Below, piece after piece: positions 13,335 through 40,715 of a stretch of DNA of 41,357 bases. Every line of letters begins with the position of its first letter. The stretch's first letter is position 1. The DNA is from Nemertoderma westbladi (Eukaryota; Animalia; Xenacoelomorpha), in NCBI GenBank assembly GCA_032718475.1, contig JAUCBJ010000037.1, positions 1 through 41,357 on the forward strand. The letters are read 5' to 3'. A program made the position numbers and the translations under genes. The notes beneath the pieces were generated by a model. The model was not told where the DNA came from. It ran no database searches and was given only the letters and a program-made list of their open reading frames with translations.

Positions 13335-13452
13335 ATGTCTGGAAATTTGGAAAAAACATCTTCAACTAGAAGCCTTCTGGACGACTTCCCACTGTTCCAG
13401 AAACTTCCGGCATCCTGGTTCATGGAGGTCTGGGACCATTATGATGAAAACG
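13335..13452 (+). CDS. Calbindin/secretagogin-like hexa-EF-hand protein, coding exon 1
   Basis: MSGNLEKTSSTRSLLDDFPLFQKLPASWFMEVWDHYDEN-G|GTAAGT, phase 1; resembles calbindin ASQFFEIWLHFDAD. Confidence 0.8.
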
Positions 13453-13667
13453 GTAAGTCATTGTGTCAGCATGTTGTGTTCTAGAACTAAATATTGTAGC
13501 CCACGTTTTTTATTTAACGCGGAATGCCAGGACTAGCCGGGGTATCCTAGTGTTTTGGTTGTACCTGTACCATCTACCGATGTTCCCCTGTGGTCGCCCA
13601 CCTCATAGCTAAACCTGGTTAAATTCCTAGATTTCACTTCTTTACATGAAACGGATTTTTATTTCAG

Positions 13668-13738
13668 ATAACGGTTACCTTGAAGGTCTGGAGTTGGAAA
13701 AGTTCTTGAAAGACTTAAGTACAAAGCTTGCCGGGAAG
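13668..13738 (+). CDS. Calbindin/secretagogin-like, exon 2
   Basis: TTTCAG| (D)NGYLEGLELEKFLKDLSTKLAGK |GTTAGT; completes EF-hand 1 loop DENDNGYLEGLE. Confidence 0.85.
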
Positions 13739-16700
13739 GTTAGTTCAATTAATTCGGTACAAAGCTTGCCGGGAAGGTTAGTTCAATTAATTCGGTACAA
13801 AGCTTGCCGGGAAGGTTAGTTCAATTAATTCAGTACAAAGCTTGCCGGGAAGGTTAGTTCAATTAATTCGGTACAAAGCTTGCCGGGAAGGTTAGTTCAA
13901 TTAATTCAGTACAAAGCTTGCCGGGAAGGTTAGTTCAATTAATTCAGTACAAAGCTTGCCGGGAAGGTTAGTTCAATTAATTCAGTACAAAGCTTGCCGG
14001 GAAGGTTAGTTCAATTAATTCAGTACAAAGCTTGCCGGGAAGGTTAGTTCAATTAATTCAGTACAAAGCTTGCCGGGAAGGTTAGTTCAATTAATTCGGT
14101 ACAAAGCTTGCCGGGAAGGTTAGTTCAATTAATTCAGTACAAAGCTTGCCGGGAAGGTTAGTTCAATTAATTCGGTACAAAGCTTGCCGGGAAGGTTAGT
14201 TCAATTAATTCAGTACAAAGCTTGCCGGGAAGGTTAGTTCAATTAATTCAGTACAAAGCTTGCCGGGAAGGTTAGTTCAATTAATTCAGTACAAAGCTTG
14301 CCGGGAAGGTTAGTTCAATTAATTCAGTACAAAGCTTGCCGGGAAGGTTAGTTCAATTAATTCAGTACAAAGCTTGCCGGGAAGGTTAGTTCAATTAATT
14401 CAGTACAAAGCTTGCCGGGAAGGTTAGTTCAATTAATTCAGTACAAAGCTTGCCGGGAAGGTTAGTTCAATTAATTCAGTACAAAGCTTGCCGGGAAGGT
14501 TAGTTCAATTAATTCAGTACAAAGCTTGCCGGGAAGGTTAGTTCAATTAATTCAGTACAAAGCTTGCCGGGAAGGTTAGTTCAATTAATTCAGTACAAAG
14601 CTTGCCGGGAAGGTTAGTTCAATTAATTCAGTACAAAGCTTGCCGGGAAGGTTAGTTCAATTAATTCAGTACAAAGCTTGCCGGGAAGGTTAGTTCAATT
14701 AATTCAGTACAAAGCTTGCCGGGAAGGTTAGTTCAATTAATTCAGTACAAAGCTTGCCGGGAAGGTTAGTTCAATTAATTCAGTACAAAGCTTGCCGGGA
14801 AGGTTAGTTCAATTAATTCAGTACAAAGCTTGCCGGGAAGGTTAGTTCAATTAATTCAGTACAAAGCTTGCCGGGAAGGTTAGTTCAATTAATTCAGTAC
14901 AAAGCTTGCCGGGAAGGTTAGTTCAATTAATTCAGTACAAAGCTTGCCGGGAAGGTTAGTTCAATTAATTCAGTACAAAGCTTGCCGGGAAGGTTAGTTC
15001 AATTAATTCAGTACAAAGCTTGCCGGGAAGGTTAGTTCAATTAATTCAGTACAAAGCTTGCCGGGAAGGTTAGTTCAATTAATTCAGTACAAAGCTTGCC
15101 GGGAAGGTTAGTTCAATTAATTCAGTACAAAGCTTGCCGGGAAGGTTAGTTCAATTAATTCAGTACAAAGCTTGCCGGGAAGGTTAGTTCAATTAATTCA
15201 GTACAAAGCTTGCCGGGAAGGTTAGTTCAATTAATTCAGTACAAAGCTTGCCGGGAAGGTTAGTTCAATTAATTCAGTACAAAGCTTGCCGGGAAGGTTA
15301 GTTCAATTAATTCAGTACAAAGCTTGCCGGGAAGGTTAGTTCAATTAATTCAGTACAAAGCTTGCCGGGAAGGTTAGTTCAATTAATTCAGTACAAAGCT
15401 TGCCGGGAAGGTTAGTTCAATTAATTCAGTACAAAGCTTGCCGGGAAGGTTAGTTCAATTAATTCAGTACAAAGCTTGCCGGGAAGGTTAGTTCAATTAA
15501 TTCAGTACAAAGCTTGCCGGGAAGGTTAGTTCAATTAATTCAGTACAAAGCTTGCCGGGAAGGTTAGTTCAATTAATTCAGTACAAAGCTTGCCGGGAAG
15601 GTTAGTTCAATTAATTCAGTACAAAGCTTGCCGGGAAGGTTAGTTCAATTAATTCAGTACAAAGCTTGCCGGGAAGGTTAGTTCAATTAATTCAGTACAA
15701 AGCTTGCCGGGAAGGTTAGTTCAATTAATTCAGTACAAAGCTTGCCGGGAAGGTTAGTTCAATTAATTCAGTACAAAGCTTGCCGGGAAGGTTAGTTCAA
15801 TTAATTCAGTACAAAGCTTGCCGGGAAGGTTAGTTCAATTAATTCAGTACAAAGCTTGCCGGGAAGGTTAGTTCAATTAATTCAGTACAAAGCTTGCCGG
15901 GAAGGTTAGTTCAATTAATTCAGTACAAAGCTTGCCGGGAAGGTTAGTTCAATTAATTCAGTACAAAGCTTGCCGGGAAGGTTAGTTCAATTAATTCAGT
16001 ACAAAGCTTGCCGGGAAGGTTAGTTCAATTAATTCAGTACAAAGCTTGCCGGGAAGGTTAGTTCAATTAATTCAGTACAAAGCTTGCCGGGAAGGTTAGT
16101 TCAATTAATTCAGTACAAAGCTTGCCGGGAAGGTTAGTTCAATTAATTCAGTACAAAGCTTGCCGGGAAGGTTAGTTCAATTAATTCAGTACAAAGCTTG
16201 CCGGGAAGGTTAGTTCAATTAATTCAGTACAAAGCTTGCCGGGAAGGTTAGTTCAATTAATTCAGTACAAAGCTTGCCGGGAAGGTTAGTTCAATTAATT
16301 CAGTACAAAGCTTGCCGGGAAGGTTAGTTCAATTAATTCAGTACAAAGCTTGCCGGGAAGGTTAGTTCAATTAATTCAGTACAAAGCTTGCCGGGAAGGT
16401 TAGTTCAATTAATTCAGTACAAAGCTTGCCGGGAAGGTTAGTTCAATTAATTCAGTACAAAGCTTGCCGGGAAGGTTAGTTCAATTAATTCAGTACAAAG
16501 CTTGCCGGGAAGGTTAGTTCAATTAATTCAGTACAAAGCTTGCCGGGAAGGTTAGTTCAATTAATTCAGTACAAAGCTTGCCGGGAAGGTTAGTTCAATT
16601 AATTCAGTACAAAGCTTGCCGGGAAGGTTAGTTCAATTAATTCAGTACAAAGCTTGCCGGGAAGGTTAGTTCAATTAATTCAGTACAAAGCTTGCCGGGA

Positions 16701-17403
16701 AGGTTAGTTCAATTAATTCAGTACAAAGCTTGCCGGGAAGGTTAGTTCAATTAATTCAGTACAAAGCTTGCCGGGAAGGTTAGTTCAATTAATTCAGTAC
16801 AAAGCTTGCCGGGAAGGTTAGTTCAATTAATTCGGTACAAAGCTTGCCGGGAAGGTTAGTTCAATTAATTCAGTACAAAGCTTGCCGGGAAGGTTAGTTC
16901 AATTAATTCAGTACAAAGCTTGCCGGGAAGGTTAGTTCAATTAATTCAGTACAAAGCTTGCCGGGAAGGTTAGTTCAATTAACTCAGTACAAAGCTTGCC
17001 GGGAAGGTTAGTTCAATTAATTCAGTACAAAGCTTGCCGGGAAGGTTAGTTCAATTAATTCGGTACAAAGCTTGCCGGGAAGGTTAGTTCAATTAATTCG
17101 GTACAAAGCTTGCCGGGAAGGTTAGTTCAATTAATTCAGTACAAAGCTTGCCGGGAAGGTTAGTTCAATTAATTCAGTACAAAGCTTGCCGGGAAGGTTA
17201 GTTCAATTAATTCGGTACAAAGCTTGCCGGGAAGGTTAGTTCAATTAATTCAGTACAAAGCTTGCCGGGAAGGTTAGTTCAATTAATTCGGTACAAAGCT
17301 TGCCGGGAAGGTTAGTTCAATTAATTCAGTACAAAGCTTGCCGGGAAGGTTAGTTCAATTAATTCAGTACAAAGCTTGCCGGGAAGGTTAGTTCAATTAA
17401 TTC
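13718..17403 (+). repeat. 38-bp tandem array (97 copies) spanning the exon 2 splice donor
   Basis: Unit AGTACAAAGCTTGCCGGGAAG|GTTAGTTCAATTAATTC = last 21 nt of exon 2 + first 17 nt of intron 2; 3686 bp / 38 = 97. Confidence 0.97.
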
Positions 17404-18063
17404 TATTACTTATTTTTAGCTACTACAGTAACTAATATTTAAAAACGAACAGAAGTTTGATTTGTGGATTCTTCAACGATAGTTGCGGACCAAGCAAGAC
17501 CTTGGAGGGGAGGGTAGGGGTATGGGGGGGGGGGGGATTAGATGGTACGATAGGGGTGATATATAGGGGGTTATTGAAAGGTGAAAAATTTGAAGTGAAA
17601 ATTAGAATATCAGTGCTAATATTCCACAACATGTAATACTACGTAATAACTATTTACTTGTATGCTTGTATGTAAAGTAGAACTTTGGGGTGTGATGATC
17701 CGAGTGGCTTTGTTACACGAACGAACGTTAGTGAGTGAGTGAAAATAAAGCCACGAGGATCAGAACACTGTAAAGTACTTTGTAACAAGTATGTATGTAG
17801 TTTTATTCCAAAATTTTAATATTACGAAATGATTGTACATATACATGATAAGTGATAGAAACTGCACAAATTATATTAGTTACTGTATAAATAAATGTAA
17901 AAATGACATAAATTATGTTATAAATAAGTTAGCTTATATTTATGGTGGCGTTTGGAGCAATATTATAATAATATAGCTAGGCCCTACTGGTTATTGATAG
18001 CTATACCCCGCCTACCGGTAGGTAATGCAGTAGGCCTATCTGGCTGTCAGGCAAATTTCCACC

Positions 18064-18159
18064 TATTGTTTACGTGGTATCCAATGACGGCGTTAAGTAA
18101 TGTCCCATCAGTGGACTGGACATTACTTAACGCCGTCATGGGTTACCACGTAAACAATA
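18064..18159. repeat. Inverted repeat, about 42-bp arms
   Basis: TATTGTTTACGTGGTATCCAATGACGGCGTTAAGTAATGTCC ... GGACATTACTTAACGCCGTCATGGGTTACCACGTAAACAATA. Confidence 0.8.
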
Positions 18160-19332
18160 ACACCAAATACAATACTAAATGTACAGGCCAATACAATGCT
18201 GTAATGTTCTCTAAAGTCTTTCATACACTGAGGTCGATAAAATGAGGACCAGTTGAATTACGGGGGGGAAAAACAAAGGAGTGACGCCCCGCCCACCCAC
18301 CCTTATCTTCTTGTAACAGCTATCGAAAAAGCAGCCTTTGGGTAAGCTCCGCCTTCTACCGACTGTTTTCATGAACATGCTGGTTTGCTTTTGCTTGCTA
18401 TAGATATTATATAGGCATGCTGTTGTTTCGCTACGCAAGAGATAAATCATCATTTTTAGTGCCGCCCTTCCGTCCGTAGTCGGCAATGATAAAGTCAACA
18501 TAATAATTTGTACAAAACATCTAACATGTTGGGAGTTTGGGAGGAACTTCAACTTCCAAGCATCCAACTTATTAATCCAAATCGTCTTAAATCTTATTAT
18601 GCAAAGGGAAATGGAAGCCAATTAAATTAAATATCCTTGATTAACGTCGTACACAGTACGAATGCCGAAATTTTGTCAATATAAGCTGACATGAATGACT
18701 GGAAGGATAATTTAGAAAGCAATGGTGACAGGCAATCATTGGACCATGGGTTGATTATGCAGCTAGTGGTACATTCTAATTCCCTGCAAGGGAATTTAAA
18801 CTGTTGCTTGCCATCAAAAAGTGAATTATTTAAAAACGAGTAATATTTTTCTTCCTGGAGCTCCATAAAGAGGGGGGGGGGGGGGGGGGATACTTTAAAT
18901 TCATTCCTCTCCAGACATCGACGCAAATAACAGCTGATTACGAGCGACAATTGATCTGTAACCTGTGCTATTGACTTTTTTAACAACCGTAATTTGTAAA
19001 CATATGTAGGCCTATGTAACTTTACGTTGTCAATAGTTAATATATTTTTTTCACATTGGGTAAATGATGTTGAAAGGTAGGTCTAATATATATTTGAAAA
19101 CTGGTATGATTATCTAATTATATATTTCACTGGAAATAAAATAGCCGCTGACCACGTCGTATAATTTGACGAGCAGGCGAGATCAATGGTAAAAAATTAA
19201 GGGCTTATAAGGGGAATAAAGCTAATTTATTTTGAGGTAAAATTAAAATTAATTCTTAAAATGGGTAACTGGTAATTTATATTAGGTTTTCATTCGAAAT
19301 AATTCATTTTATCACACGGTATTATGCTATGT

Positions 19333-19406
19333 GTCTCTGTGGCGCAATCGGCTAGCGCGTTAGACTGTTAATCTAAAGGTTGGTGGTTCGAGCCCACCCA
19401 GGGACG
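19333..19406 (+). tRNA. tRNA-Asn (GTT), intronic
   Basis: GTCTCTG/CAGGGAC acceptor stem, A-box TGGCGCAATCGG, anticodon arm TTAGA-CTGTTAA-TCTAA, T-arm GGTGG-TTCGAGC-CCACC, TTTT shortly downstream; near-identical to metazoan tRNA-Asn. Confidence 0.93.
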
Positions 19407-19439
19407 ATGCCATTTTGTAATACTTATATTATTTGTTTT

Positions 19440-19503
19440 ACTCAAAATAATACTCCCGGTACTTAACTTAATTAAGTTAAGTACCGGGAGTATTATTTTG
19501 AGT
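19440..19503. repeat. Perfect 64-bp palindrome
   Basis: ACTCAAAATAATACTCCCGGTACTTAACTTAA|TTAAGTTAAGTACCGGGAGTATTATTTTGAGT. Confidence 0.95.
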
Positions 19504-19749
19504 CTTAGTCAATATTTATTTTGAATGGGTAATAATATATTACTTATGCCATTTCAAAAAATCGGTAACAGGCATATTATTTGGGATGCAGTCAACCTTT
19601 TAAAATATTATGTTGACTGTATAATTTTATACAGTCAACATAATATTTGAAAAAGTTGACTGCATCCCAAATAATATGCCTGTTACCGATTTTTTGAAAT
19701 GGCATAAGTAATATATTATTACCCATTCAAAATAAATATTGACTAAGAC
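19502..19749. repeat. Near-perfect 248-bp palindrome (foldback)
   Basis: Arms of about 123 bp, GTCTTAGTCAATATTT... / ...AAATATTGACTAAGAC, 2 mismatches seen, centre at 19625/19626. Confidence 0.92.
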
Positions 19750-20132
19750 GTATACTTTTATAGCTTTAAGAAGTATACGCTCCACGATTATTGTTCTTGG
19801 TTGGTCTGCTGATTGACTTTTTTTTATTAGAAGATCATGCCACTGTAATCTTTTACGTTGATACTGAACACTTTTAATTTTCCGAGATGGGATATGCGTC
19901 CGTCAATTGGGAGTGATTGGGAGTCATTGGGAGTGATGCTATTGATTCAATCAACATTCAACCCTGTACAAGGGAAAATAACCGTACATGAAATATTCTT
20001 GTATAAGAACCAAGATCAAAATATTGTCTTATATTGTCATTATATATTCAACGTGCTACCAATTTCAATAATTTTGTTTTAACTATTATGGCATTATATA
20101 ATGTAAACCTACCGTCCCAATCGATATTACAG

Positions 20133-20222
20133 GTTCCTCAGGATTCCGAATTACAAAAAATGAAGAAGAAACTTATGAAGAAGTACGATAAAGCGGGTGA
20201 TGGTAGAATATCTCTAGAAGAG
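20133..20222 (+). CDS. Calbindin/secretagogin-like, exon 3
   Basis: TATTACAG| VPQDSELQKMKKKLMKKYDKAGDGRISLEE |GTTAGT, phase 0/0; EF-hand 2. An in-frame alternative acceptor lies 9 nt downstream. Confidence 0.82.
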
Positions 20223-22298
20223 GTTAGTGGCTGGGTGGGTGATGGTAGAATATCTCTAGAAGAGGTTAGTGGCTGGGTGGGTGATGGTAGAATATCTCTA
20301 GAAGAGGTTAGTGGCTGGGTGGGTGATGGTAGAATATCTCTAGAAGAGGTTAGTGGCTGGGTGGGTGATGGTAGAATATCTCTAGAAGAGGTTAGTGGCT
20401 GGGTGGGTGATGGTAGAATATCTCTAGAAGAGGTTAGTGGCTGGTTGCGTGGGTGATGGTAGAATATCTCTAGAAGAGGTTAGTGGTTGGGTGGGTGATG
20501 GTAGAATATCTCTAGAAGAGGTTAGTGGCTGGGTGGGTGATGGTAGAATATCTCTAGAAGAGGTTAGTGGCTGGTTGCGTGGGTGATGGTAGAATATCTC
20601 TAGAAGAGGTTAGTGGCTGGGTGGGTGATGGTAGAATATCTCTAGAAGAGGTTAGTGGTTGGGTGGGTGATGGTAGAATATCTCTAGAAGAGGTTAGTGG
20701 CTGGGTGGGTGATGGTAGAATATCTCTAGAAGAGGTTAGTGGCTGGGTGGGTGATGGTAGAATATCTCTAGAAGAGGTTAGTGGCTGGGTGGGTGATGGT
20801 AGAATATCTCTAGAAGAGGTTAGTGGCTGGGTGGGTGATGGTAGAATATCTCTAGAAGAGGTTAGTGGCTGGTTGCGTGGGTGATGGTAGAATATCTCTA
20901 GAAGAGGTTAGTGGTTGGGTGGGTGATGGTAGAATATCTCTAGAAGAGGTTAGTGGCTGGGTGGGTGATGGTAGAATATCTCTAGAAGAGGTTAGTGGCT
21001 GGTTGCGTGGGTGATGGTAGAATATCTCTAGAAGAGGTTAGTGGCTGGGTGGGTGATGGTAGAATATCTCTAGAAGAGGTTAGTGGTTGGGTGGGTGATG
21101 GTAGAATATCTCTAGAAGAGGTTAGTGATTGGGTGGGTGATGGTAGAATATCTCTAGAAGAGGTTAGTGGCTGGGTGGGTGGGTGATGGTAGAATATCTC
21201 TAGAAGAGGTTAGTGGCTGGGTGGGTGATGGTAGAATTTCTCTAGAAGAGGTTAGTGGCTGGGTGGGTGATGGTAGAATATCTCTAGAAGAGGTTAGTGG
21301 TTGGGTGGGTGATGGTAGAATTTCTCTAGAAGAGGTTAGCGGCTGGGTGGGTGATGGTAGAATATCTCTAGAAGAGGTTAGTGGTTGGGTGGGTGATGGT
21401 AGAATTTCTCTAGAAGAGGTTAGCGGCTGGGTGGGTGATGGTAGAATATCTCTAGAAGAGGTTAGTGGCTGGGTGGGTGATGGTAGAATATCTCTAGAAG
21501 AGGTTAGTGGCTGGGTGGGTGATGGTAGAATATCTCTAGAAGAGGTTAGTGGTTGGGTGGGTGATGGTAGAATTTCTCTAGAAGAGGTTAGCGGCTGGGT
21601 GGGTGATGGTAGAATTTCTCTAGAAGAGGTTAGCGGCTGGGTGGGTGATGGTAGAATATCTCTAGAAGAGGTTAGTGATTGGGTGGGTGATGGTAGAATA
21701 TCTCTAGAAGAGGTTAGTGGCTGGGTGGGTGATGGTAGAATATCTCTAGAAGAGGTTAGTGGCTGGGTGGGTGATGGTAGAATATCTCTAGAAGAGGTTA
21801 GTGGTTGGGTGGGTGATGGTAGAATTTCTCTAGAAGAGGTTAGTGGCTGGGTGGGTGATGGTAGAATTTCTTTAGAAGAGGTTAGTGGTTGGGTGGGTGG
21901 GTGATGGAAGAATATCTCTAGAAGAGGTTAGTGATTGGGTGGGTGATGGAAGAATATCTCTAGAAGAGGTTAGTGATTAGGTGGCTGATGGTAGAATATA
22001 TCTAGAAGATGTTAGTGGCTGGGTGGGTGATGGTAGAATATATCTAGAAGAGGTTAGTGGCTGGGTGGGTGATGGTAGAATATCTCTAGAAGATGTTAGT
22101 GGCTGGGTGGGTGATGGTAGAATATATCTAGAAGAGGTTAGTGGCTGGGTGGGTGATGGTAGAATATCTCTAGAAGAGGTTAGTGGCTGGGTGGGTGATG
22201 GTAGAATTTCTCTAGAAGAGGTTAGTGGCTGGGTGGGTGATGGTAGAATATCTCTAGAAGAGGTTAGTGGCTGGGTGGGTGATGGTAGAATATATCTA
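20195..22298 (+). repeat. 42-bp tandem array spanning the exon 3 splice donor, left part (about 50 copies)
   Basis: Unit GGGTGATGGTAGAATATCTCTAGAAGAG|GTTAGTGGCTGGGT = last 28 nt of exon 3 + first 14 nt of intron 3. Confidence 0.96.
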
Positions 22299-22299
22299 T

Positions 22300-22923
22300 C
22301 TATAATATGTCTAATCTATCTTTAAGTTGAACATAAATTGCTCTTTTCGCTGGAAACAGACAAGAAATGGCATCACCATTAAACTTGAAATTCTCGCTAA
22401 CACATATGGGAGTAACTACCCTGTTGGGGGCCTTTACATAAGTAAACTCAGTAATGCAACTCGGGTGAGTTTCAAGCACAGATATGATTTTGTTTCTAAT
22501 TTCCTCAGCTGTATCTATGCTACAGAAATCGAGCATGCAATGCTTCACTATGTTAGAATGTTTGATAGTAATTAATTCATCTTTATAATGCTTCCCACGT
22601 ACTACAACCATTGCCTTACTGAAAGTCGTTGCTGCTGGCCTTCCACGGGGAGAAGAAAGACGTGCACGAGATGGAGTTATTCGTCGTCGGCTTACTGACC
22701 CAGTTGGAACCGATGCATATGGTGCAAATTGACGATTTAGTTCAGCTATTAACTCACGCCTATTTGAACTAGGAACTGAAGCAATATCGCAACTGGTGCC
22801 ACAATGTGAACAAAACTTATCCTCAGCACTAAGAGTTTTACTGCAATTCTGGCAGATCATAGTTCTGCATTGACGGCGGGAAATTGTCAAATATTTTTTC
22901 AAGCTACAAATGCAATCTGTCAA
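22300..22923 (-). CDS. Hypothetical transposon-borne protein with N-terminal zinc ribbon (CQNC...FCSHCG); probably truncated
   Basis: 207-aa ORF (first Met at about 22860, MICQNC) with two CxxC pairs; its stop lies at the insertion junction. Confidence 0.5.
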   Translation of the reverse strand: MTDCICSLKKYLTISRRQCRTMICQNCSKTLSAEDKFCSHCGTSCDIASVPSSNRRELIAELNRQFAPYASVPTGSVSRRRITPSRARLSSPRGRPAATTFSKAMVVVRGKHYKDELITIKHSNIVKHCMLDFCSIDTAEEIRNKIISVLETHPSCITEFTYVKAPNRVVTPICVSENFKFNGDAISCLFPAKRAIYVQLKDRLDIL

Positions 22924-23063
22924 TAATATTTTCCTAATAAATGTTTTATATTGTAAAGTATGTAGGCTTCTACATACGGTGGCTGAATTCCAAAATTAAT
23001 TATTAGAATGAAATGGTGACTTACATGTGGTGGTGAACAGGCATTATTCCTTGGCTTAACGGG

Positions 23064-23277
23064 CGCAGTGGCAGTACGGCTAATGTCGCATTACGGAAAG
23101 TCGCGTTACGGCTAATCTCTCAAAAATTTAGCTGTAACGCGACAATTAGCCGTAACGCGACAATTAGCCGCAACGCGACTTTTAGAGTAGCCGTACCGCG
23201 ACTTTGAAAGTCGCGTTACAGCTAATCTCTCATAAAATTAGCCGTAACGAGACATTAGCCGTAACGAGACCACACCG
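23064..23277. mobile_element. Nested Mutator-like MITE
   Basis: 9-bp flanking direct repeat CTTAACGGG / CTTAACGAG; termini CGCAGTGG / CCACACCG; internal inverted arrays of GTCGCGTTACGGCTAA. Confidence 0.6.
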
Positions 23278-23366
23278 CTTAACGAGCCTAAAAGATTCTC
23301 CCATTCATAATATAATTAATTTTGGCCCAATTCAGCCAACGTATCAACAGCATAATACTAATAATG

Positions 23367-23647
23367 GCCCATGTGAAGAATACCAGACTTTCTGCCGTTA
23401 TATTTCACTTTGCGGTTACCCCCCATGTGAAGAATACCAGGTTTTGACCAAAAACACAGGTTACAGAAGGGCTGAATTTAACCAAAACAATAAACGAAAT
23501 AGTATATGTATGTACAGGTTATAAGACAGAAATAAACGCATATAAAACATTTATTAAAGATAAATTTAAAAAAAATTAAAAATCTTAATATAAAATTCCA
23601 ATAAAAGGTCGTCCGAAAAGTGAAATCCTGGTATTCTTCACATGGGC
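23367..23647. mobile_element. Nested MITE remnant
   Basis: 20-bp inverted repeat GCCCATGTGAAGAATACCAG / CTGGTATTCTTCACATGGGC, with a further direct copy near 23421. Confidence 0.5.
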
Positions 23648-24065
23648 GTATGGGCGCAAATTATAAACTGTAACACTTAATATAGTACATCAATTTAATG
23701 GTTTGTTGAATTATTAATTTTTATTGAATTTAAAAGAATCACATTAAGTAGAAATCATGCATCTGACTACTGCTAAACAAAAATTCAGTCCAGAATAGGG
23801 ACCGCCGCGCCGCGCGGCTATTGTACCAAAGTACAAATACAATATTGCAACTCTGGCTTGTATAAACAAACATGCTACCCTAAACTCGACACGACGCCCC
23901 TTAATACAGACAGGAGGCAGAGATAATGTTACGGTATGCTGAAATGAATGATATAGAAAGAAGGCCTATTTAATACCTATTATATATATCCCTATTGCAC
24001 CTATAAGGGTATTTCCTCTGCTGCTATTGGATGGCCGTTTCCTACTGTCCCAATTAACAGCCAAT

Positions 24066-26709
24066 CGCGATTTTTTTCGCGAGATGTGTATTTTTCTCGC
24101 GAGTTTAATCATTTATCTCGCGAGATTAATTATTTTCTCGCGAGTTTAATCATTTATCTCGCGAGATTAATTATTTTCTCGCGAGTTTAATCATTTATCT
24201 CGCGAGATTAATTATTTTCTCGCGAGATTAATTATTTTCTCGCGAGTTTAATTATTTTCTCGCGAGTTTAATCATTTATCTCGCGAGATTAATTATTTTC
24301 TCGTGGGATTAATTATTTTCTCGCGAGTTTAATCATTTATCTCGCGAGATTAATTATTTTCTCGCGAGTTTAATCATTTATCTCGCGAGATTAATTATTT
24401 TCTCGCGAGTTGAATCATTTATCTCGCGAGATTAATTATTTTCTCGCGTGTTTAATCATTTATCTCGCGAGATTAATTATTTTCTCGCGAGTTTAATCAT
24501 TTATCTCGCGAGATTAATTATTTTCTCGCGAGATTAATCATTTATCTCGCGAGTTTAATCATTTATCTCGCGAGATTAATTATTTTCTCGCGAGTTTAAT
24601 CATTTATCTCGCGAGATTAATCATTTATCTCGCGAGTTTAATCATTTATCTCGCGAGATTAATTATTTTCTCGCGAGTTTAATCATTTATCTCGCGAGAT
24701 TAATTATTTTCTCGCGAGTTTAATCATTTATCTCGCGAGATTAATTATTTTCTCGCGAGTTTAATCATTTATCTCGCGAGATTAATTATTTTCTCGCGAG
24801 TTTAATCATTTATCTCGCGAGTTTAATCATTTATCTCGCGAGATTAATTATTTTCTCGCGAGTTTAATCATTTATCTCGCGAGATTAATTATTTTCTCGC
24901 GAGTTGAATTATTTATCTCGCGAGATTAATTATTTTCTCGCGTGTTTAATCATTTATCTCGCGAGATTAATTATTTTCTCGCGAGTTTAATCATTTATCT
25001 CGCGAGATTAATTATTTTCTCGCGAGATTAATCATTTATCTCGCGAGTTTAATCATTTATCTCGCGAGATTAATTATTTTCTCGCGAGTTTAATCATTTA
25101 TCTCGCGAGATTAATTATTTTCTCGCGAGTTTAATCATTTATCTCGCGAGATTAATTATTTTCTCGCGAGTTTAATCATTTATCTCGCGAGATTAATTAT
25201 TTTCTCGCGAGTTTAATCATTTATCTCGCGAGATTAATTATTTTCTCGCGAGTTTAATCATTTATCTCGCGAGATTAATTATTTTCTCGCGAGTTTAATC
25301 ATTTATCTCGCGAGATTAATTATTTTCTCGCGAGTTTAATCATTTATCTCGCGAGATTAATTATTTTCTCGCGAGTTTAATCACTTATCTCGCGAGATTA
25401 ATTATTTTCTCGCGAGTTTAATCATTTATCTCGCGAGTTTAATCATTTATCTCGCGAGATTAATTATTTTCTCGCGAGTTTAATCGTTTATCTCGCGAGA
25501 TTAATTATTTTCTCGCGAGTTGAATCATTTATCTCGCGAGATTAATTATTTTCTCGCGTGTTTAATCATTTATCTCGCGAGATTAATTATTTTCTCGCGA
25601 GTTTAATCATTTATCTCGCGAGATTAATTATTTTCTCGCGAGATTAATCATTTATCTCGCGAGTTTAATCATTTATCTCGCGAGATTAATTATTTTCTCG
25701 CGAGTTTAATCATTTATCTCGCGAGATTAATTATTTTCTCGCGAGTTTAATCATTTATCTCGCGAGATTAATTATTTTCTCGCGAGTTTAATCATTTATC
25801 TCGCGAGATTAATGATTTTCTCGCGAGTTTAATCATTTATCTCGCGAGATTAATTATTTTCTCGCGAGTTTAATCATTTATCTCGCGAGATTAATTATTT
25901 TCTCGCGAGTTTAATCATTTATCTCGCGAGATTAATTATTTTCTCGCGAGTTTAATCATTTATCTCGCGAGATTAATTATTTTCTCGCGAGTTTAATCAT
26001 TTATCTCGCGAGATTAATTATTTTCTCGCGAGTTTAATCATTTATCTCGCGAGATTAATTATTTTCTCGCGAGTTTAATCATTTATCTCGCGAGATTAAT
26101 TATTTTCTCGCGAGTTTAATCATTTATCTCGCGAGATTAATTATTTTCTCGCGAGTTTAATCATTTATCTCGCGAGTTTAATCATTTATCTCGCGAGATT
26201 AATTATTTTCTCGCGAGTTTAATCATTTATCTCGCGAGATTAATTATTTTCTCGCGAGTTGAATCATTTATCTCGCGAGATTAATTATTTTCTCGCGTGT
26301 TTAATCATTTATCTCGCGAGATTAATTATTTTCTCGCGAGTTTAATCATTTATCTCGCGAGATTAATTATTTTCTCGCGAGATTAATCATTTATCTCGCG
26401 AGTTTAATCATTTATCTCGCGAGATTAATTATTTTCTCGCGAGTTTAATCATTTATCTCGCGAGATTAATTATTTTCTCGCGAGTTTAATCATTTATCTC
26501 GCGAGATTAATTATTTTCTCGCGAGTTTAATCATTTATCTCGCGAGATTAATTATTTTCTCGCGAGTTTAATCATTTATCTCGCGAGATTAATTATTTTC
26601 TCGCGAGTTTAATCATTTATCTCGCGAGATTAATTATTTTCTCGCGAGTTTAATCATTTATCTCGCGAGATTAATTATTTTCTCGCGTGTTTAATCATTT
26701 ATCTCGCGA
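24066..26709. repeat. Satellite of alternating 21- and 20-bp monomers (41-bp dimer), each with CTCGCGAG
   Basis: TTTAATCATTTATCTCGCGAG + ATTAATTATTTTCTCGCGAG, roughly 125-130 monomers; recurring variant blocks indicate higher-order structure. Confidence 0.96.
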
Positions 26710-26773
26710 CTAAATTCAGAAGAATATCAAGGGGAAATAAAATGTCGAATAAAAATACTAAAAGTATGCCATA

Positions 26774-28475
26774 TAGAAGAGGTTAGTGGCTGGGTGGGTG
26801 ATGGTAGAATTTCTCTAGAAGAGGTTAGTGGTTGGGTGGGTGATGGTAGAATTTCTTTAGAAGAGGTTAGTGGCTGGGTGGGTGATGGTAGAATTTCTCT
26901 AGAAGAGGTTAGTGATTGGGTGGGTGATGGTAGAATATCTCTAGAAGAGGTTAGTGGTTGGGTGGGTGATGGTAGAATATCTCTAGAAGAGGTTAGTGGT
27001 TGGGTGGGTGATGGTAGAATATATCTAGAAGAGGTTAGTGGCTGGGTGGGTGATGGTAGAATATCTCTAGAAGAGGTTAGTGGTTGGGTGGGTGATGGTA
27101 GAATATCTCTAGAAGAGGTTAGTGGTTGGGTGGGTGATGGTAGAATTTCTCTAGAAGAGGTTAGTGGCTGGGTGGGTGATGGTAGAATTTCTCTAGAAGA
27201 GGTTAGTGGCTGGGTGGGTGATGGTAGAATTTCTCTAGAAGAGGTTAGTGGCTGGGTGGGTGGGTGATGGTAGAATTTCTTTAGAAGAGGTTAGTGGCTG
27301 GGTGGGTGATGGTAGAATTTCTCTAGAAGAGGTTAGTGGTTGGGTGGGTGATGGTAGAATTTCTCTAGAAGAGGTTAGTGGTTGGGTGGGTGATGGTAGA
27401 ATTTCTCTAGAAGATGTTAGTGATTGGATGGGTGATGGTAGAACTTATTTAGAAGAGGTTAGTGGCTGTGTGGGTGATGGTAGAATTTCTCTAGAAGAGG
27501 TTAGTGGCTGGGTGGGTGATGGTAGAATTTCTCTAGAAGAGGTTAGTGGCTGGGTGGGTGGGTGATGGTAGAATATCTCTAGAAGAGGTCAGTGATTGGG
27601 TGGGTGATGGTAGAATTTCTCTAGAAGAGGTTAGTGGCTGGGCGGGTGATGGTAGAACTTATTTAGAAGAGGTTAGTGGCTGGCTGGGTGGGTGGGTGAT
27701 GGTAGAATTTCTCTAGAAGAGGTTAGTGGCTGGGTGGGTGATGGTAGAACTTATTTAGAAGAGGTTAGTGGCTGGGTGGGTGGGTGATGGTAGGATTTCT
27801 CTAGAAGAGGTTAGTGATTGGGTGGGTGATGGTAGAATTTATCTAGAAGATGTTAGTGGTTGGGAGGGTGATGGTAGAATTTCTCTAGAAGAGGTTGGTG
27901 GCTGGGTGGGTGGGTGATGGTAGAATTTCTCTAGAAGAGGTTAGTGATTGGGTGGGTGATGGTAGAATTTATCTAGAAGAGGTTAGTGGTTGGGAGGGTG
28001 ATGGTAGAATTTCTCTAGAAGAGGTTAGTGGTTGGGTGGGTGATGGTAGAACTTATTTAGAAGAGGTTAGTGGCTGGGTGGGTGGGTGATGGTAGAATTT
28101 CTCTAGAAGAGGTTAGTGATTGGGTGGGTGATGGTATAATTTTTCTAGAAGAGGTTAGTGATTGGGTGGGTGATGGTAGAATTTATCTAGAAGAGGTTAG
28201 TGGCTGGGTGGGTGGGTGATGGTAGAATTTCTCTAGAAGAGGTTAGTGATTGGGTGGGTGATGGTAGAATTTTTCTAGAAGAGGTTAGTGATTGGGTGGG
28301 TGATGGTAGAATTTATCTGGAAGAGGTTAGTGGCTGGGTGGGTGGGTGATGGTAGAATTTCTCTCGAAGAGGTTAGTGATTGGGTGGGTGATGGTAGAAT
28401 TTTTCTAGAAGAGGTTGGTGATTGGGTGGGTGATGGTAGAATTTATCTAGAAGAGTTGGTGGTTGGGTGGGTGAT
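26774..28475 (+). repeat. 42-bp exon 3 donor array, right part (about 40 copies, progressively diverging)
   Basis: Same unit as 20195-22298, with more substitutions and GGGT slippage toward the 3' end. Confidence 0.94.
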
Positions 28476-28622
28476 TGAGGAATATATATAATTCGTGGGT
28501 GGATATCTCCAGAGGAGGACGTGGTTTTTGGTAGGTGACGGTACGGTTCACTGGAAGAGGGAAGAGCTTGCATACCATTGACATTATTCAGTTCCACTTC
28601 ACTCCACATCATTTTGTTTTAG

Positions 28623-28766
28623 ATGACTTCGATATTGCCCACAGACCAAAACTTCATTCTATTGTTTCAACGGGATCAGAAACTAACATCGAGTGTTGAA
28701 CTTCTCACATTGTGGCGAAAATACGACCTGGACAAGACTGGCTTTATTAACCAACAAGAACTTAAA
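28623..28766 (+). CDS. Calbindin/secretagogin-like, exon 4
   Basis: TTTTAG| MTSILPTDQNFILLFQRDQKLTSSVELLTLWRKYDLDKTGFINQQELK |GTTAGT; matches the family signature LPxEENFLLLF...SSVEFMxxWRKYD. Confidence 0.92.
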
Positions 28767-28883
28767 GTTAGTTTTTAAAAATACAATTATTATAGCTGGC
28801 TATAAGACCGAATAATAATAATAATAACATAACTGTTTGTAATTTAACCTATTAGTTAAATTCATGTTTATTAATTTTTGCAG

Positions 28884-29067
28884 CTCTTTGTAAAAGATTG
28901 GATCGAGAAAGCCAATCCTTCAGGTGTGACAGACCAAAAGTTAGACGAATACGTTCAATGCATCCTAAAGAACTTTGTCAAGGAAGATAAACTCTCTTTA
29001 CATGACATGGCGAGATTGTTAGACACACGGACTAACTTTCTGGTTGAGTTTGAAGATGCATCGAAAG
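28884..29067 (+). CDS. Calbindin/secretagogin-like, exon 5
   Basis: TTTTGCAG| LFVKDWIEKANPSGVTDQKLDEYVQCILKNFVKEDKLSLHDMARLLDTRTNFLVEFEDASK-G |GTAATA, phase 1; KLxEY and MARLL..NFL signatures. Confidence 0.9.
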
Positions 29068-29199
29068 GTAATAGTTGTGATTATAATATATATTGTCTTT
29101 ATATCTATTATTGTCATCATGCACTTCTAGTAACTAACACACAATTAAATGATGTTTCGTTTATTCGTATTGCAGTTTATATATAAGAATATAGATTAT

Positions 29200-31130
29200 G
29201 GTGTCACTCTCGGTGCTTTTTGTTTTAGGCAGAGAGAAGGGTGTCACTCTCAGTGCTTTTTGTTTTAGGCAGAGAGAAGGGTGTCACTCTCAATGATTTT
29301 TGTTTTAGGTAGAGAGAAGGGTGTCACTCTCAGTGCTTTTTGTTTTAGGTAGAGAGAAGGGTGTCACTCTCAGTGCTTTTTGTTTTAGGTAGAGAGAAGG
29401 GTGTCACTCTCAGTGATTTTTGTTTTAGGTAGAGAGAAGGGTGTCACTCTCAATGCTTTTTGTTTTAGGTAGAGAGAAGGGTGTCACTCTCAGTGATTTT
29501 TGTTTTAGGTAGAGAGAAGGGTGTCACTCTCAATGCTTTTTGTTTTAGGTAGAGAGAAGGGTGTCACTCTCGGTGCTTTTTGTTTTAGGTAGAGAGAAGG
29601 GTGTCACTCTCAGTGATTTTTGTTTTAGGTAGAGAGAAGGGTGTCACTCTCAATGCTTTTTGTTTTAGGTAGAGAGAAGGGTGTCACTCTCGGTGCTTTT
29701 TGTTTTAGGTAGAGAGAAGGGTGTCACTCTCAGTGATTTTTGTTTTAGGTAGAGAGAAGGGTGTCACTCTCAGTACTTTTTGTTTTAGGTAGAGAGAAGG
29801 GTGGCACTCTCGGTGCTTTTTGTTTTAGGTAGAGAGAAGGGTGTCACTATCAGTGCTTTTTGTTTTAGGTAGAGAGAAGGGTGTCACTCTCAGTGATTTT
29901 TGTTTTAGGTAGAGAGAAGGGTGTCACTCTCAGTACTTTTTGTTTTAGGTAGAGGGAAGGGTGTCACTCTCAGTGCTTTTTGTTTTAGGTAGAGAGAAGG
30001 GTGTCACTATCAGTGCTTTTTGTTTTAGGTAGAGAGAAGGGTGTCACTCTCGGTGCTTTTTGTTTTAGGTAGAGAGAAGGGTGTCACTATCAGTGCTTTT
30101 TGTTTTAGGTAGAGAGAAGGGTGGCACTCTCGGTGCTTTTTGTTTTAGGTAGAGAGAAGGGTGTCACTATCAGTGCTTTTTGTTTTAGGTAGAGAGAAGG
30201 GTGTCACTCTCAGTGATTTTTGTTTTAGGTAGAGAGAAGGGTGTCACTCTCAGTACTTTTTGTTTTAGGTAGAGGGAAGGGTGTCACTCTCGGTGCTTTT
30301 TGTTTTAGGTAGAGAGAAAGGTGTCACTCTCAGTGCTTTTTGTTTTAGGTAGAGAGAAGGGTGTCACTCTCGGTGCTTTTTGTTTTAGGTAGAGAGAAGG
30401 GTGTCACTATCAGTGCTTTTTGTTTTAGGTAGAGAGAAGGGTGTCACTCTCGGTGCTTTTTGTTTTAGGTAGAGAGAAGGGTGTCACTATCAGTGCTTTT
30501 TGTTTTAGGTAGAGAGAAGGGTGTCACTCTCAGTGATTTTTGTTTTAGGTAGAGAGAAGGGTGTCACTCTCAGTACTTTTTGTTTTAGGTAGAGAGAAGG
30601 GTGGCACTCTCGGTGCTTTTTGTTTTAGGTAGAGAGAAGGGTGTCACTATCAGTGCTTTTTGTTTTAGGTAGAGAGAAGGGTGTCACTCTCAGTGATTTT
30701 TGTTTTAGGTAGAGAGAAGGGTGTCACTCTCAGTACTTTTTGTTTTAGGTAGAGGGAAGGGTGTCACTCTCAGTGCTTTTTGTTTTAGGTAGAGAGAAGG
30801 GTGTCACTATCAGTGCTTTTTGTTTTAGGTAGAGAGAAGGGTGTCACTCTCAGTGATTTTTGTTTTAGGTAGAGAGAAGGGTGTCACTCTCAGTGCTTTT
30901 TGTTTTAGGTAGAGAGAAGGGTGTCACTCTCGGTGCTTTTTGTTTTAGGTAGAGAGAAGGGTGTCACTCTCAATGATTTTTGTTTTAGGTAGAGAGAAGG
31001 GTGTCACTCTCAGTGATTTTTGTTTTAGGTAGAGAGAAGGGTGTCACTATCAGTGCTTTTTGTTTTAGGTAGAGAGAAGGGTGTCACTCTAAAATATTTT
31101 TGTTTTAGGTAGAGAGAAGGGTGTCACTCT
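29200..31130 (+). repeat. 40-bp tandem array (48 acceptor copies) spanning the exon 6 splice acceptor
   Basis: Unit CAGTGCTTTTTGTTTTAG|GTAGAGAGAAGGGTGTCACTCT = 18 nt of acceptor + first 22 nt of exon 6; AG ends at 29228, 29268 ... 31108. Confidence 0.97.
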
Positions 31131-31236
31131 AAAAGATTTCGAAAAGGTTTTTAACTATTACGATAAATCTCAAACGGGTTACCTTGAAAATGAAGAAATT
31201 GATGCTTTCGTCAAGGATTTCTTTGAGTTGGCTTAT
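31109..31236 (+). CDS. Calbindin/secretagogin-like, exon 6
   Basis: TTTTAG| (G)REKGVTLKDFEKVFNYYDKSQTGYLENEEIDAFVKDFFELAY |GTAAGT; EF-hand 5; phase agrees with exon 5. Confidence 0.88.
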
Positions 31237-31380
31237 GTAAGTTTTCTGTCATCAATCTTTAAATGTAGGTAGATCCTCTGCGCACAGTTTTTCAACTTTG
31301 GTGTAATTAATTTGACATTATGGACGAAGCAAAGCGAAAAAAAACAAAATTCACCTTTTGATAGAGTTAAATATATTTAT

Positions 31381-31472
31381 TTAAAGTAAATTCAATTTAC
31401 TTTAAGTTAATTAAATTTACTTTTTTAAGTAAATTTAATTTGCTTTAAGTAAATTAAATTTACTTTAAGTAA
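31381..31472. repeat. Short AT-rich quasi-palindromic tandem repeat (about 21-bp unit, about 4 copies)
   Basis: TTAAGTAAATTAAATTTACT-like units. Confidence 0.6.
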
Positions 31473-31663
31473 AGCCTATTGAGCCTGGTTTCAGCTGGTA
31501 GGATTAACCTGTTCACAACCTTTTGCTATGGAAGCCTGAAAACAAGAATAGACGTGGTGGACAGCCAATGGCTTGCCAATGGCCTGCTCAAGTAAATCGG
31601 ACTTCAGAATAGGGATGAACTGGGAAATTGTATGGCTGGCCGTAAGATCTGGGTGCGCTGTTG

Positions 31664-32730
31664 TTGTGTCCGCCGGTAGGGGGTGCTATGTTTCTGGGTC
31701 CGCCGGTAGGGGGTATTATGTTTCTGGGTACGCCGGTAGGGGGCGGTATTTTTATGGGTCTGTCGGTAGGAGGCGCCATGTTTCTGGGTCCGCCGGTCGG
31801 GGGTGCTATGTTTTTGGGTCCGCCGGTTGGGACTGCTATGTTTGTGGGTCCACCGGTAGAGGGTGCTATGTTTCTGGGTCCGCCGGTAGGGGCTGCTATG
31901 TTTGTGTGTCCGCCGGTATGGAGTGCTATGTTTTTGGGTCCGCCGGTTGGGACTGCTATGTTTGTGGGTCCACCGGTAGAGGGTGCTATGTTTCTGGGTC
32001 CGCCGGTAGGGGCTGCTATGTTTGTGTGTCCGCCGGTTGGGGGTACTATGTTTTTGGGTCCGCCGGTTGGGAGTGCTATGTTTTTAGGTCCGCCAGTAGG
32101 GGGTGCTATGTTTCTGGGTCCGCCGCCGCTAGGGGGTGCTATGTTTCTGGGCACGCCGGTAGTGGGTGGTATTTTAATGGGTACGCGCCGGTAGGGGCCC
32201 CTAAGTTTCTGGGCCCGCCGGTAGGGGGTGCTATGTTTCTGGGTCCGTCGGTAGGGGGTGCTATGTTTTTGGGTCCGCCGGTAGGGGGTACTATGTTTCT
32301 GGGTCCGCCGGTAGGGGGTGCTATGTTTGTGGGTCCGCCGGTAGGGGCTGCTATGTTTCTGGGTCCGCCGGTAGGGGGTGCTATGTTTTTGGGTCCGCCG
32401 GTAGGGGGTGCTATGTGTCTGGGTCCGCAGGTAGGGGCTGCTATGTTTGTGGGTCCGCCGGTAGGGGCTGCTATGTTTCTGGGTCCGCCGGTAGGGGGTG
32501 CTATGTTTTTGGGTCCGCTGGTAGTGGGTGCTCTGTTTCTGGGTACGCCGGTAGGGGGCGGTATTTTTATGGGTCCGCCGGTAGGGGCTGCTATGTTTGT
32601 GGGTCCGCCGGTAGGGGCTGCTATGTTTCTGGGTCTGCCGGTTAGGGCGCTATGTTTCTGTGTTCCCGGGAAGGGGCTGCTATGTTTCTGGGTCCGCCGG
32701 TAGGGGGCGCTATGTTTGTGGGTCCCGTAG
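31664..32730. repeat. 30-bp GC-rich minisatellite (about 35 copies) in intron 6
   Basis: Unit GGGTCCGCCGGTAGGGGGTGCTATGTTTCT with many variants. Confidence 0.95.
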
Positions 32731-33133
32731 AGGACTCTTTCTTCATTTTTTAAGTTGACATCCATAATGACGAAAGGCAGACCAATCAAACATACATGTT
32801 TCATGTAAGTTGGCGAGGTGGTGAAGCGGTACTCACTGTATGCGCATACAATGGCGCCTAAATAATAATAATTTAATATAAAATATAAATATAAAAATGG
32901 CTCATACCATTTTTACCTTAAAAGTTTTCAGATTAATGCAGATTCTGCTTAGAACTTAGCAATTTTCTGTACCAAGTCGTATAGTGCATAAGGTGTCCTA
33001 CCCTGTCGAAGACACCTACCTCAATAATTTGTTATATTCAAAGATATGCGACCGAACCATTATATTGGCCCGGCTTATGGGCTTATATATTATTTAGTTA
33101 TATAATTAATGATTATCGCAAACATATTTACAG

Positions 33134-33268
33134 CCTGGGATTACCATTGGACAAATAGATCGATTTAAAGGCGGCCTAATGGGCCTGTGCAAAGTCGACC
33201 AGGATAAGGACGGGAAGATAAGCAAAAAGGAGCTAGCCATGATATTAATCAACGCTAAGGACAAGTGA
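33134..33268 (+). CDS. Calbindin/secretagogin-like, exon 7 (last)
   Basis: TTTACAG| PGITIGQIDRFKGGLMGLCKVDQDKDGKISKKELAMILINAKDK*; EF-hand 6; AATAAA at 33509 and 33548. Total CDS 870 nt = 289 aa. Confidence 0.88.
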   Translation, partial: PGITIGQIDRFKGGLMGLCKVDQDKDGKISKKELAMILINAKDK

Positions 33269-34547
33269 TTAGAAAGAATGCCACAAGATACAATATAATA
33301 TTTCCGTGGTAAAGGTATACTTTCGCCGTAATCCTTAAACTAGCAGCTACTTTCATTATAGTCACTGATATCGTGTTTTATATTCATGTATTTCTACTTA
33401 AGTTTTTTTCATGTATTGTTGTTGTTTATACTATAATTTAAACTCATTTCAATATTTAGTATTACAAGTTGATCAACCATTTTTACCTGGATTGTATTTT
33501 GTTTATACAATAAACTCAATGAAATGAATTTCGACATTTAGTTCTACAATAAATGTGACCATCGTTAAGATTTGTGTCTTTAATATTATTTTAATGCTGT
33601 TGTTTCCGCAGTTTTCATATATCTTAGATTTTCCTTTGTGGTAACTTTATATTCCTTGAATTTTGATTTTGCATGAGTTTTATTCATGTAATTGTTTGTG
33701 CATCTTTGCTAACTATTTTGTTGAACTTCTGCAGATAATATGCGACAGCATCTTATTGTGTTTCTTTTGTGTGTCATTTTTGCATAAAGTAAATAAAATG
33801 GTGCAATCATTGTGGTTTGAAATCCTAATTTTTTTAATTTTAAAAATTTGCACTGGAATAATGGAATAATATTGAATAACCATTAACAATAAGCGATATC
33901 TGATTATTTGTATTTATGATGAAAATTTTGTTAGCAAAGTTGCGAATTTTATACTTCTCTCAAACTTCATTTACTAACATACCTTTGAAAGCATTTATTG
34001 GAAAAATGTCAATTTAGATATAAAAATTATGTTAGAGATTTAAGAGAAACAATATGTGAAATAATATATATTAGGTAGGCCCAAGAATTATGTTCATATC
34101 GTCCTAGTGTTATGACGGAACTGGTTATAAATCATTGCATTTGCTAAAATCGAATTCCTGCCTGACTGCTGTAATGAAACATAATTACACGCTTATTATT
34201 AATTTATGCATTGCAATTGCGACTTGTAAACGAATCATTCTTTCACATTCATTTAATCAGGTTGCTCCGCTGTGCTAATAAACTTATTAGGGATTTGCAA
34301 AGAATTTGTTGTTCCCGTTTGTATTTATATTATAAATACTCCAATGTTAATTATCAGCATTATTACGTATAAATATAGAAACATTTATATTCAAGATTAA
34401 AACTTAGAGACTCAATACTCGAGTGCAAATATCTGAAATCAAACATCAAGTAGTCTTCATCATTTAATCACCAAAGTTTTGGAACAAAGTGTTACTGTAG
34501 TGATTGGGTTGCGTCATGACCTATAATTACCTATAAATACTATAAAT

Positions 34548-40338: not shown

Positions 40339-40410
40339 ACCTCCGTGGTGTAGTGGTTAGCATACCTGAACGTTTATCGGGAGACGCGGGTTCGATCCCC
40401 GCTGGTGGCG
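40339..40410 (+). pseudogene. tRNA-like element (tRNA pseudogene or SINE head)
   Basis: A-box TGGTGTAGTGG, B-box GGTTCGATCCC, paired anticodon and T stems; loop ACGTTTA lacks U33 and purine 37; two acceptor-stem mismatches; T6 downstream. Confidence 0.65.
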
Positions 40411-40715
40411 AATTCATTTTTTCCGCTCCATTTGCTATAGAGTTGGATCATCCTTAGTCCTGTTTAATTACTTATAATTTATAGAAACGAATCTTGCAAT
40501 TTTTGATTGATTTAAAAATTGAAATACGGTTTCTGGAATGTCCATCAATGACAGTAATTAATAGATTTCTCTAGGCCGATTTTATATTTAGTCTGTGACA
40601 TTTCTGCATGTGTGTAGTAAAAATCTCCATAGAGCATTGCAATTTGTTTTAGTTCTCACACTATCTTTGCTGCCCTAAATATGTAAACGTTTTACGAAAT
40701 AAAATAGAAGCTCAC

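Follow-up and report, generated by a model that had tools for sequence, protein, structure and literature searches.

A minisatellite spanning an exon-intron junction reiterates an in-frame splice donor in a secretagogin-like gene of Nemertoderma westbladi

INTRODUCTION

Which splice donor does a gene use when the end of an exon and the beginning of the following intron have been copied in tandem many times over? The question is raised by a 41,357-nt stretch of the genome of Nemertoderma westbladi (Xenacoelomorpha; assembly GCA_032718475.1, contig JAUCBJ010000037.1, positions 1 to 41,357 of the forward strand), hereafter the window, in which the third exon of a predicted gene is followed by a long array of 42-nt units that repeat its donor. 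An initial annotation of this DNA proposed that choice among the repeated donors could yield isoforms with one to five extra 14-residue units, and that evolution of the coding sequence is linked to that of the repeat.

Minisatellites that span splice junctions are known from lancelet (amphioxus) and human genes (PMC3087553, PMC3902484, PMC1557585). In amphioxus, "mirage" minisatellites occur in Adh3, troponin C, the globins BflGb6 and BflGb9, and PGBD5; they lie at both exon boundaries, and splicing is reported to be undisturbed (PMC3087553, PMC3902484). Five human cases have been described. A 37-bp VNTR in intron 7 of F7 (IVS7) is reported to be spliced from its most upstream donor only, and some of its pseudo-donors would cause no early stop yet stay unused. 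Mutating the F7 donors in turn activates the next donor and raises exon skipping, which grew as the usable donor shifted downstream and did so only after upstream donors had been mutated; in the same source, LMNB2 and PDGF are reported to use the authentic donor only (PMC1557585). The remaining two, IFI6 (6-16), with a minisatellite in intron 2, and CBS, with a 31-bp VNTR in intron 13, are described as using two downstream repeat donors (PMC1557585, PMC4526556, PMC2630376). For IFI6, three mRNAs are reported, and the shortest protein, a 130-residue form, predominates (PMC4526556).

RESULTS

A secretagogin-like gene with seven predicted exons

The host gene lies on the forward strand (13335-33268). 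Its seven exons, modeled on the basis of sequence and homology, are joined at canonical GT-AG sites and give a 289-aa open frame. The coding part of exon 1 (13335-13452) runs from an ATG start to a GTAAGT donor. Exon 2 (71 nt, 13668-13738) has its last 21 nt within the first unit of a 38-bp donor array, and exon 3 (90 nt, 20133-20222), which is in phase 0 at both ends, stops at loop position 12 of EF-hand 2. It is followed by exon 4 (144 nt, 28623-28766), whose top solved-structure matches are secretagogin and calbindin, exon 5 (184 nt, 28884-29067), exon 6 (128 nt, 31109-31236), and the coding part of exon 7 up to the stop (33134-33268). Exons 3, 4, 6, and 7 match EF-hand families in Pfam with scores below the curated cut-offs, as expected because the queries are fragments, and exons 1, 2, and 5 have no EF-hand family match in Pfam. 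Of the six EF-hands expected of a secretagogin, five have loops that fit a simple pattern. The fourth would be expected in exon 5, which has no Pfam hit of its own and found nothing as a protein-search query, and this loop of the predicted protein looks degenerate. A search with exon 7 and its 3' flank (33100-33860) listed no RNA data set containing it, a result that says nothing about expression.

In a midpoint-rooted tree of 29 rows, which included 28 fetched homologs chosen by score and name, the predicted protein clustered with named secretagogins in a seven-row clade (support 99/97), apart from calbindin-32 and calretinin. Within that clade it grouped with an unnamed protein (P0001) and with the secretagogin of the sea cucumber Holothuria leucospilota (P0006), its closest named homolog (support 97/94). 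Secretagogin is a member of the calbindin subfamily (PMC3296734, PMC5539292). The likeness is distant: the nearest homologs are just 39-46% identical to the predicted protein, which sits on a long branch (1.17). P0001 and P0006 have the same spacing as the predicted protein at the exon 3/4 junction, and the exon 5/6 linker is 34 residues in all three. For the neighboring spermine synthase gene, amphioxus and echinoderms provide the best hits (50-56%), pointing to a source that is probably an invertebrate, perhaps a deuterostome.

The donor array and the insertion that splits it

Each 42-nt unit consists of the final 28 nt of exon 3 together with the opening 14 nt of intron 3, and thereby spans the exon-intron boundary. 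In the frame of exon 3 the unit translates without a stop as VSGWVGDGRISLEE, and it carries the same GAG|GTTAGT splice signal as the authentic donor at 20223; on both points our analysis agrees with the initial annotation. With a permissive pattern we found 88 donor-like sites in about 90 unit copies: the authentic donor, 48 more to position 22263, and 39 from 26782 to 28414. The sequence GAAGAG|GTTAG is present at 81 of the 88. Two metagenome scans yielded no related DNA: a 24-nt stretch from the exon end had 0 exact matches, and none of 496 pattern hits to the exon 4 peptide was confirmed. Given the minisatellite size of the unit (42 bp) and the reiteration of the splice signal in its intronic copies, the exon 3 array is a junction-spanning minisatellite of the mirage or F7 type.

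The array had been annotated as one tract ending at 28475. It proved instead to consist of two forward-strand blocks, one of 49.5 copies (20195-22298) that includes the authentic donor and the 48 copies, and a more diverged one of 39.7 copies (26774-28475) with the other 39 donor-like sites. Moreover, local alignment traced degenerate forward-strand copies beyond the second block, from 28476 to about 28570, with a score of 59.5, where shuffles averaged 32.5 and none of 500 came up to it. Between the blocks lies a 4.5-kb insertion (22299-26773) unrelated to the unit. It contains an open reading frame for a 186-aa zinc-ribbon protein on the reverse strand (22300-22860), nested inverted repeats (about 22935-23730), and a 41-bp array that is likewise unrelated to the 42-bp unit (24092-26709). 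At the insertion ends we detected neither similarity to the 42-bp unit nor a terminal inverted repeat.

Tracts capable of forming G-quadruplexes, which had also been suggested, were not borne out in their canonical three-tier form. There were no four-run G3 motifs in either block with loops of up to 7 or 12, and the motifs that did occur in the two blocks were all of the two-tier G2 kind (45 and 30 matches), with modest G4Hunter maxima of 1.48 and 1.56.

Similarity to the exon declines with distance

The units nearest to exon 3 match it exactly, and divergence rises toward the distal end, as had been noted at the outset. Exact matches to the 28-nt exon part were found at 23 of 23 copies for donors 1-23, 11 of 25 for donors 24-48, 5 of 19 for donors 50-68, and 0 of 19 for donors 69-87, bins that omit the truncated copy at 26782. 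Divergence correlated with distance from the exon (Spearman rho of 0.74; the 87 copies are not mutually independent). The 28-nt contexts upstream of the first 24 donors were identical. Within bins, mean pairwise distance was 0.46, 1.97, 2.06, and 2.96 from exon-proximal to distal, and the mean distance between units was 1.8 at lag 1 and reached 3.6 at lag 80, a sign of local homogenization. Homogenization between the exon and the proximal units, one part of the initial proposal, is supported as a pattern. The gradient fits units that arose, or were homogenized, at the exon end, although the mechanism itself is something we infer. A narrow literature search, which is weak evidence of absence, found no paper in which minisatellite polarity was combined with homogenization with an exon.

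The second part of that proposal, a link between the repeat and coding evolution, was not demonstrated. The commonest variant of the exon part is a T carried by 32 of 38 block 2 copies, and it is synonymous. We considered whether distal units might record an older allele of the exon, and rejected this idea since the two degenerate copies of the tail both have A, like the exon, at this commonest variable site; T is therefore more likely to have arisen inside the array. Among distinct variants of the exon part, 6 of 12 were synonymous, against 27-32% expected (P = 0.08 to 0.14; copies not independent), as were 9 of 23 among all distinct unit variants (P = 0.07 to 0.15). The two commonest unit variants, present in 40 and 33 copies, are both synonymous in the coding frame. 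This excess is a weak hint of coding constraint and is not significant, which leaves coding selection on the units unsupported.

The same gradient bears on whether the arrays were inflated or created by assembly error, or whether the gene is a decaying copy. Suspicion could fall on the exon 2 array, where 86 of 97 units are identical, and on the long branch of the protein. Yet the exon 3 array comprises 38 different unit sequences whose order is graded, ends in a degenerate tail, and is interrupted by an insertion; the frame of 289 aa is undamaged, its splice sites are canonical, and residues 13-283 align to a homolog at 46% identity. We consider artifact or decay the least likely account of the locus.

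An open frame at chance level

Beyond the authentic donor, five more are in frame and stop-free (20265, 20307, 20349, 20391, and 20433), such that translation continued past exon 3 would run through five perfect repeats of 14 residues. The unit after donor 20433 is 46 nt long, and the 4-nt insertion brings in a TGA at 20454-20456. This much of the initial description is correct.

An open run of this kind could be the product of selection, as it would be if the array served as a regulated ladder of one to five extra repeats derived from the EF loop that tunes the protein. The five perfect units adjoining the exon and the weak excess of synonymous variants are what such a ladder might leave behind. 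However, both the frame and the length of the run are at chance level. When duplications of 30-60 nt were placed over four donors with unique flanks, 649 of 2,692 (24%) were in frame and stop-free, and when unit order was shuffled, the opening in-frame run reached at least five in 34-43% of 3,000 trials. Furthermore, among 86 complete units, 14 depart in length, at 46 or 50 nt (+4 or +8), and every one of them breaks the frame. A unit length divisible by three is likely an accident.

Extra units would disturb, not extend, the EF-hand

An EF-hand consists of a calcium-binding loop flanked by two helices, and the loop consensus has an Asp at position 1 that serves as the first ligand. When the repeat is aligned to the loop register, Gly, Trp, and Val take positions 1-3, which Asp, Lys, and Ala occupy in the real loop, so the repeat lacks the first ligand; its 14 residues are also too few for a loop with helices. 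On both counts we rejected the repeat as a calcium-binding EF-hand loop. Although the initial annotation spoke of extra copies of part of EF-hand 2, then, the repeat rebuilds no such loop. We mapped the exon 3/4 junction onto a structure model of the closest homolog, P0001 (mean pLDDT of 87.9), in which the equivalent junction (residues 94/95) falls inside a helix spanning residues 92-98. Judging from this model, an insert would sit in the exiting helix and would likely disrupt EF-hand 2 rather than create a loop.

Homologs pointed in the same direction. Of 147 fetched, 118 align across the exon 3/4 junction; the first-donor protein is the best-scoring form for 115 and a longer isoform for the other 3. 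The comparison used one representative per 50% cluster, is blind to minor isoforms, and has a built-in bias toward the ungapped form. Spacing at the junction was 24 residues in 91 of the 114 homologs shorter than 500 aa, 25-26 in 12, shorter in 9, and longer in 2. The two longer rows have inserts of unrelated sequence that resemble intron read-through, and the 14-aa repeat was absent from all 114. By this comparison, the first donor is shown to give the predicted protein in its family-standard form.

Two sister arrays are out of frame

The same gene harbors two further junction-spanning minisatellites on the forward strand. A 38-bp array at the exon 2 donor (13718-17403) has 97 donors and the 86 identical units mentioned above, and a 40-bp array at the exon 6 acceptor (29200-31130) has 48 acceptors. 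Both are out of frame. At exon 2, all seven alternatives tested (donors 2-8) lead to early stops. At exon 6, six of six alternatives do so, and among the last seven acceptors tested only the exon-adjacent site at 31109 does not. An intact gene therefore requires either that the exon-adjacent site wins or that the wrong products are destroyed. Of the five long arrays in the gene, three span a junction, against 7-9% expected per array (P = 0.003 to 0.007), a post hoc figure from a window picked for its oddity.

The gradient seen at exon 3 does not extend to these arrays. In the acceptor array, the 22-nt exon part shows no gradient (rho of 0.07), with the last unit most exon-like over 32 nt, and the exon 2 array varies too little for a judgment. 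We consequently rejected polarity as a general rule. We also rejected the idea that exon 6 has gained sequence from its acceptor array, given that the linker has the same length as in the two nearest homologs.

Taken together with the helix position of the insert, the missing ligand, and the absence of the repeat from homologs, the out-of-frame sister arrays make a selected ladder very improbable. The proposed isoforms with one to five extra units are possible on paper; the case that they are selected finds no support in a frame at chance level, in sister arrays that break the frame, or in the spacing of homologs.

DISCUSSION

Our preferred explanation, to which we give roughly two chances in three, is that the exon 3 array is a tolerated minisatellite that was seeded by slippage, grew at its exon end, was later split by an insertion, and is spliced at a first donor chosen by its position. 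Slippage may have seeded the array where the exon end and the intron share GGGTGAT, a short microhomology suggested by the distal end of the array. Growth or homogenization would then have been concentrated near the exon, leaving older, decaying copies distally, and an insertion resembling a mobile element would later have interrupted the array. Because the first 24 donors share identical upstream contexts, choice of the first would have to be made by position, through exon definition or 5'-to-3' scanning, as for human F7. Under these circumstances splicing most likely proceeds from the first donor, which yields the normal protein, and the copies are largely ignored, while donors 2 and 3 may see minor use, as in human IFI6 and CBS.

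The resemblance to F7 is close in design and less so in scale. Both arrays begin with a unit that straddles the donor, and identical pseudo-donors lie downstream of it. F7 has 5-9 copies with 4 exon nucleotides per unit, compared with 88 sites and 28 exon nucleotides here; in addition, donor use was shown experimentally for F7 in a mammalian system and is predicted for the exon 3 array (PMC1557585). The amphioxus mirages are much shorter as reported (3-6 units in BflGb6 and 2-7 in PGBD5, compared with 48-97 sites here), and one array in the present gene differs from them in having an in-frame unit. Boundary units of BflGb6 are described as lying outside homogenization, whereas the exon-side units of our array are identical to the exon and its distal boundary is degenerate (PMC3087553, PMC3902484).

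Ranked by confidence, the main rival to a tolerated repeat is leaky donor choice, in which donors 2 and 3 would be used as in IFI6 and CBS to make minority forms with 14 or 28 additional residues and a disrupted EF-hand 2, as tolerated by-products that are not selected. We regard this as unlikely, but it is the alternative that deserves most attention. Both human genes use downstream repeat donors, and IFI6 makes several isoforms, a precedent for the ladder idea as well (PMC4526556, PMC1557585). Here, donors 2-6 are identical to the authentic donor, exon 3 would remain at most 300 nt long, and the kind of extension seen in IFI6 and CBS, one that keeps the frame, is available at chance level. 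The cost might also be softened if EF1 and EF2 bind calcium weakly, as is reported for human secretagogin (PMC5539292). On the other hand, two extra donors are used in the human genes, compared with five in-frame candidates in the exon 3 array, and, unlike in IFI6 and CBS, the predicted insert falls inside a folded EF-hand. No such use is reported for F7, LMNB2, PDGF, or the amphioxus mirages (PMC1557585, PMC3087553, PMC3902484). If the exon 2 array, with its 97 donors, leaked to a similar extent, transcripts would be wasted as frameshifts. In-frame splice products would escape nonsense-mediated decay, and leakage would for this reason persist and be more visible at the exon 3 array, unlike at the sister arrays.

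A bolder version would make the array a splice dial. Forms of secretagogin with one to five 14-residue inserts would unfold EF-hand 2, and, with new units arising at the exon end, slippage would reset the dial's length from one individual to the next and could carry array variants into the exon. We think this improbable. An even fainter prospect than a regulated ladder is that the array mainly weakens recognition of exon 3 and causes skipping of the exon rather than its extension. At 90 nt and with phase 0 on both sides, exon 3 could be skipped in frame, and skipping in F7 rose as the usable donor was moved downstream; but the F7 effect required mutated upstream donors, and the authentic donor of exon 3 is intact (PMC1557585).

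As a tolerated repeat, the exon 3 array as it most likely stands is one more junction-spanning minisatellite and not a discovery in itself. Its most interesting real feature is the gradient anchored at the exon, from 23 of 23 exact copies to 0 of 19, which shows where such arrays turn over. Arrays that span junctions are also traps for gene prediction. If regulated use of the in-frame donors were true, it would represent a repeat-driven route to protein variants in a neuronal calcium sensor. More generally, the gene offers a natural test case, with three arrays of 48-97 sites, two at donors and one at an acceptor, of which one is in frame and two are not. RNA from this gene would separate positional choice of a donor from the decay of wrong products, and would do so in an invertebrate.

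Splice junctions and the sequences amplified with them

The splice sites of the secretagogin-like gene, a predicted seven-exon gene on the forward strand (13335-33268), differ in whether they have been multiplied. GTTAGT serves alike as the donor of exon 2 (13739), exon 3 (20223), and exon 4 (28767); two of these three donors have been amplified, and the third is unamplified. At 31069-31140, the last unit of the 40-bp array at the exon 6 acceptor resembles the continuation of the exon over 32 nt, with 2 mismatches compared with 3 to 7 in the other units. This closer match suggests that the exon-derived part of the acceptor unit was perhaps longer originally than it now seems.

The array that spans the exon 3 donor is itself split by a 4.5-kb insertion (22299-26773). 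At the left edge of the insertion is a 186-aa ORF on the reverse strand (22300-22860), whose stop codon adjoins the insertion end and whose N-terminal zinc ribbon matches Pfam PF13240 at 27.8 bits, against a cut-off of 25. Presumably, it is similar to the small ORFs that are carried with mobile elements in marine invertebrates. The insertion also contains a 41-bp array of 63.8 copies (24092-26709), which is rich in TCGCGA palindromes and unrelated to the exons.

Other repeats and the neighboring gene

A 30-bp GC-rich array in intron 6 (31668-32725) spans no junction and yields long repeat ORFs on both strands, which are probably spurious. By eye, intron 2 holds two neighboring long palindromes, one perfect (19440-19503) and one near perfect (about 19504-19748), and the pair is foldback- or MITE-like. 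Intron 2 also contains one of two forward-strand tRNA-Asn(GTT) predictions (19332-19407 and 40338-40411), which are either real tRNAs or tRNA-derived repeats. By-eye reading of a GC-richer stretch on the forward strand (about 37900-39450) found QGDPL and YADD, which we take to be reverse-transcriptase-like motifs; this stretch is probably a decayed non-LTR retrotransposon. A 288-bp tandem duplication in two copies with 89% matches lies at 1171-1734. The secretagogin-like gene lies head to head with an intronless spermine synthase ORF of 379 aa on the reverse strand (6308-7447; PF01564 and PF17284), for which the best matches were amphioxus and echinoderms (50-56%).

EF loops and homolog insertions

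The fourth EF loop, in exon 5 (28884-29067), appears degenerate, and neither a Pfam match nor an EF loop pattern was found in this exon. Among the homologs compared, only two, P0105 and P0094, carry an insertion at the exon 3/4 junction. Both insertions begin with Val, directly after loop position 12, as expected for read-through of a phase-0 GT intron, which suggests that the intron position is old.
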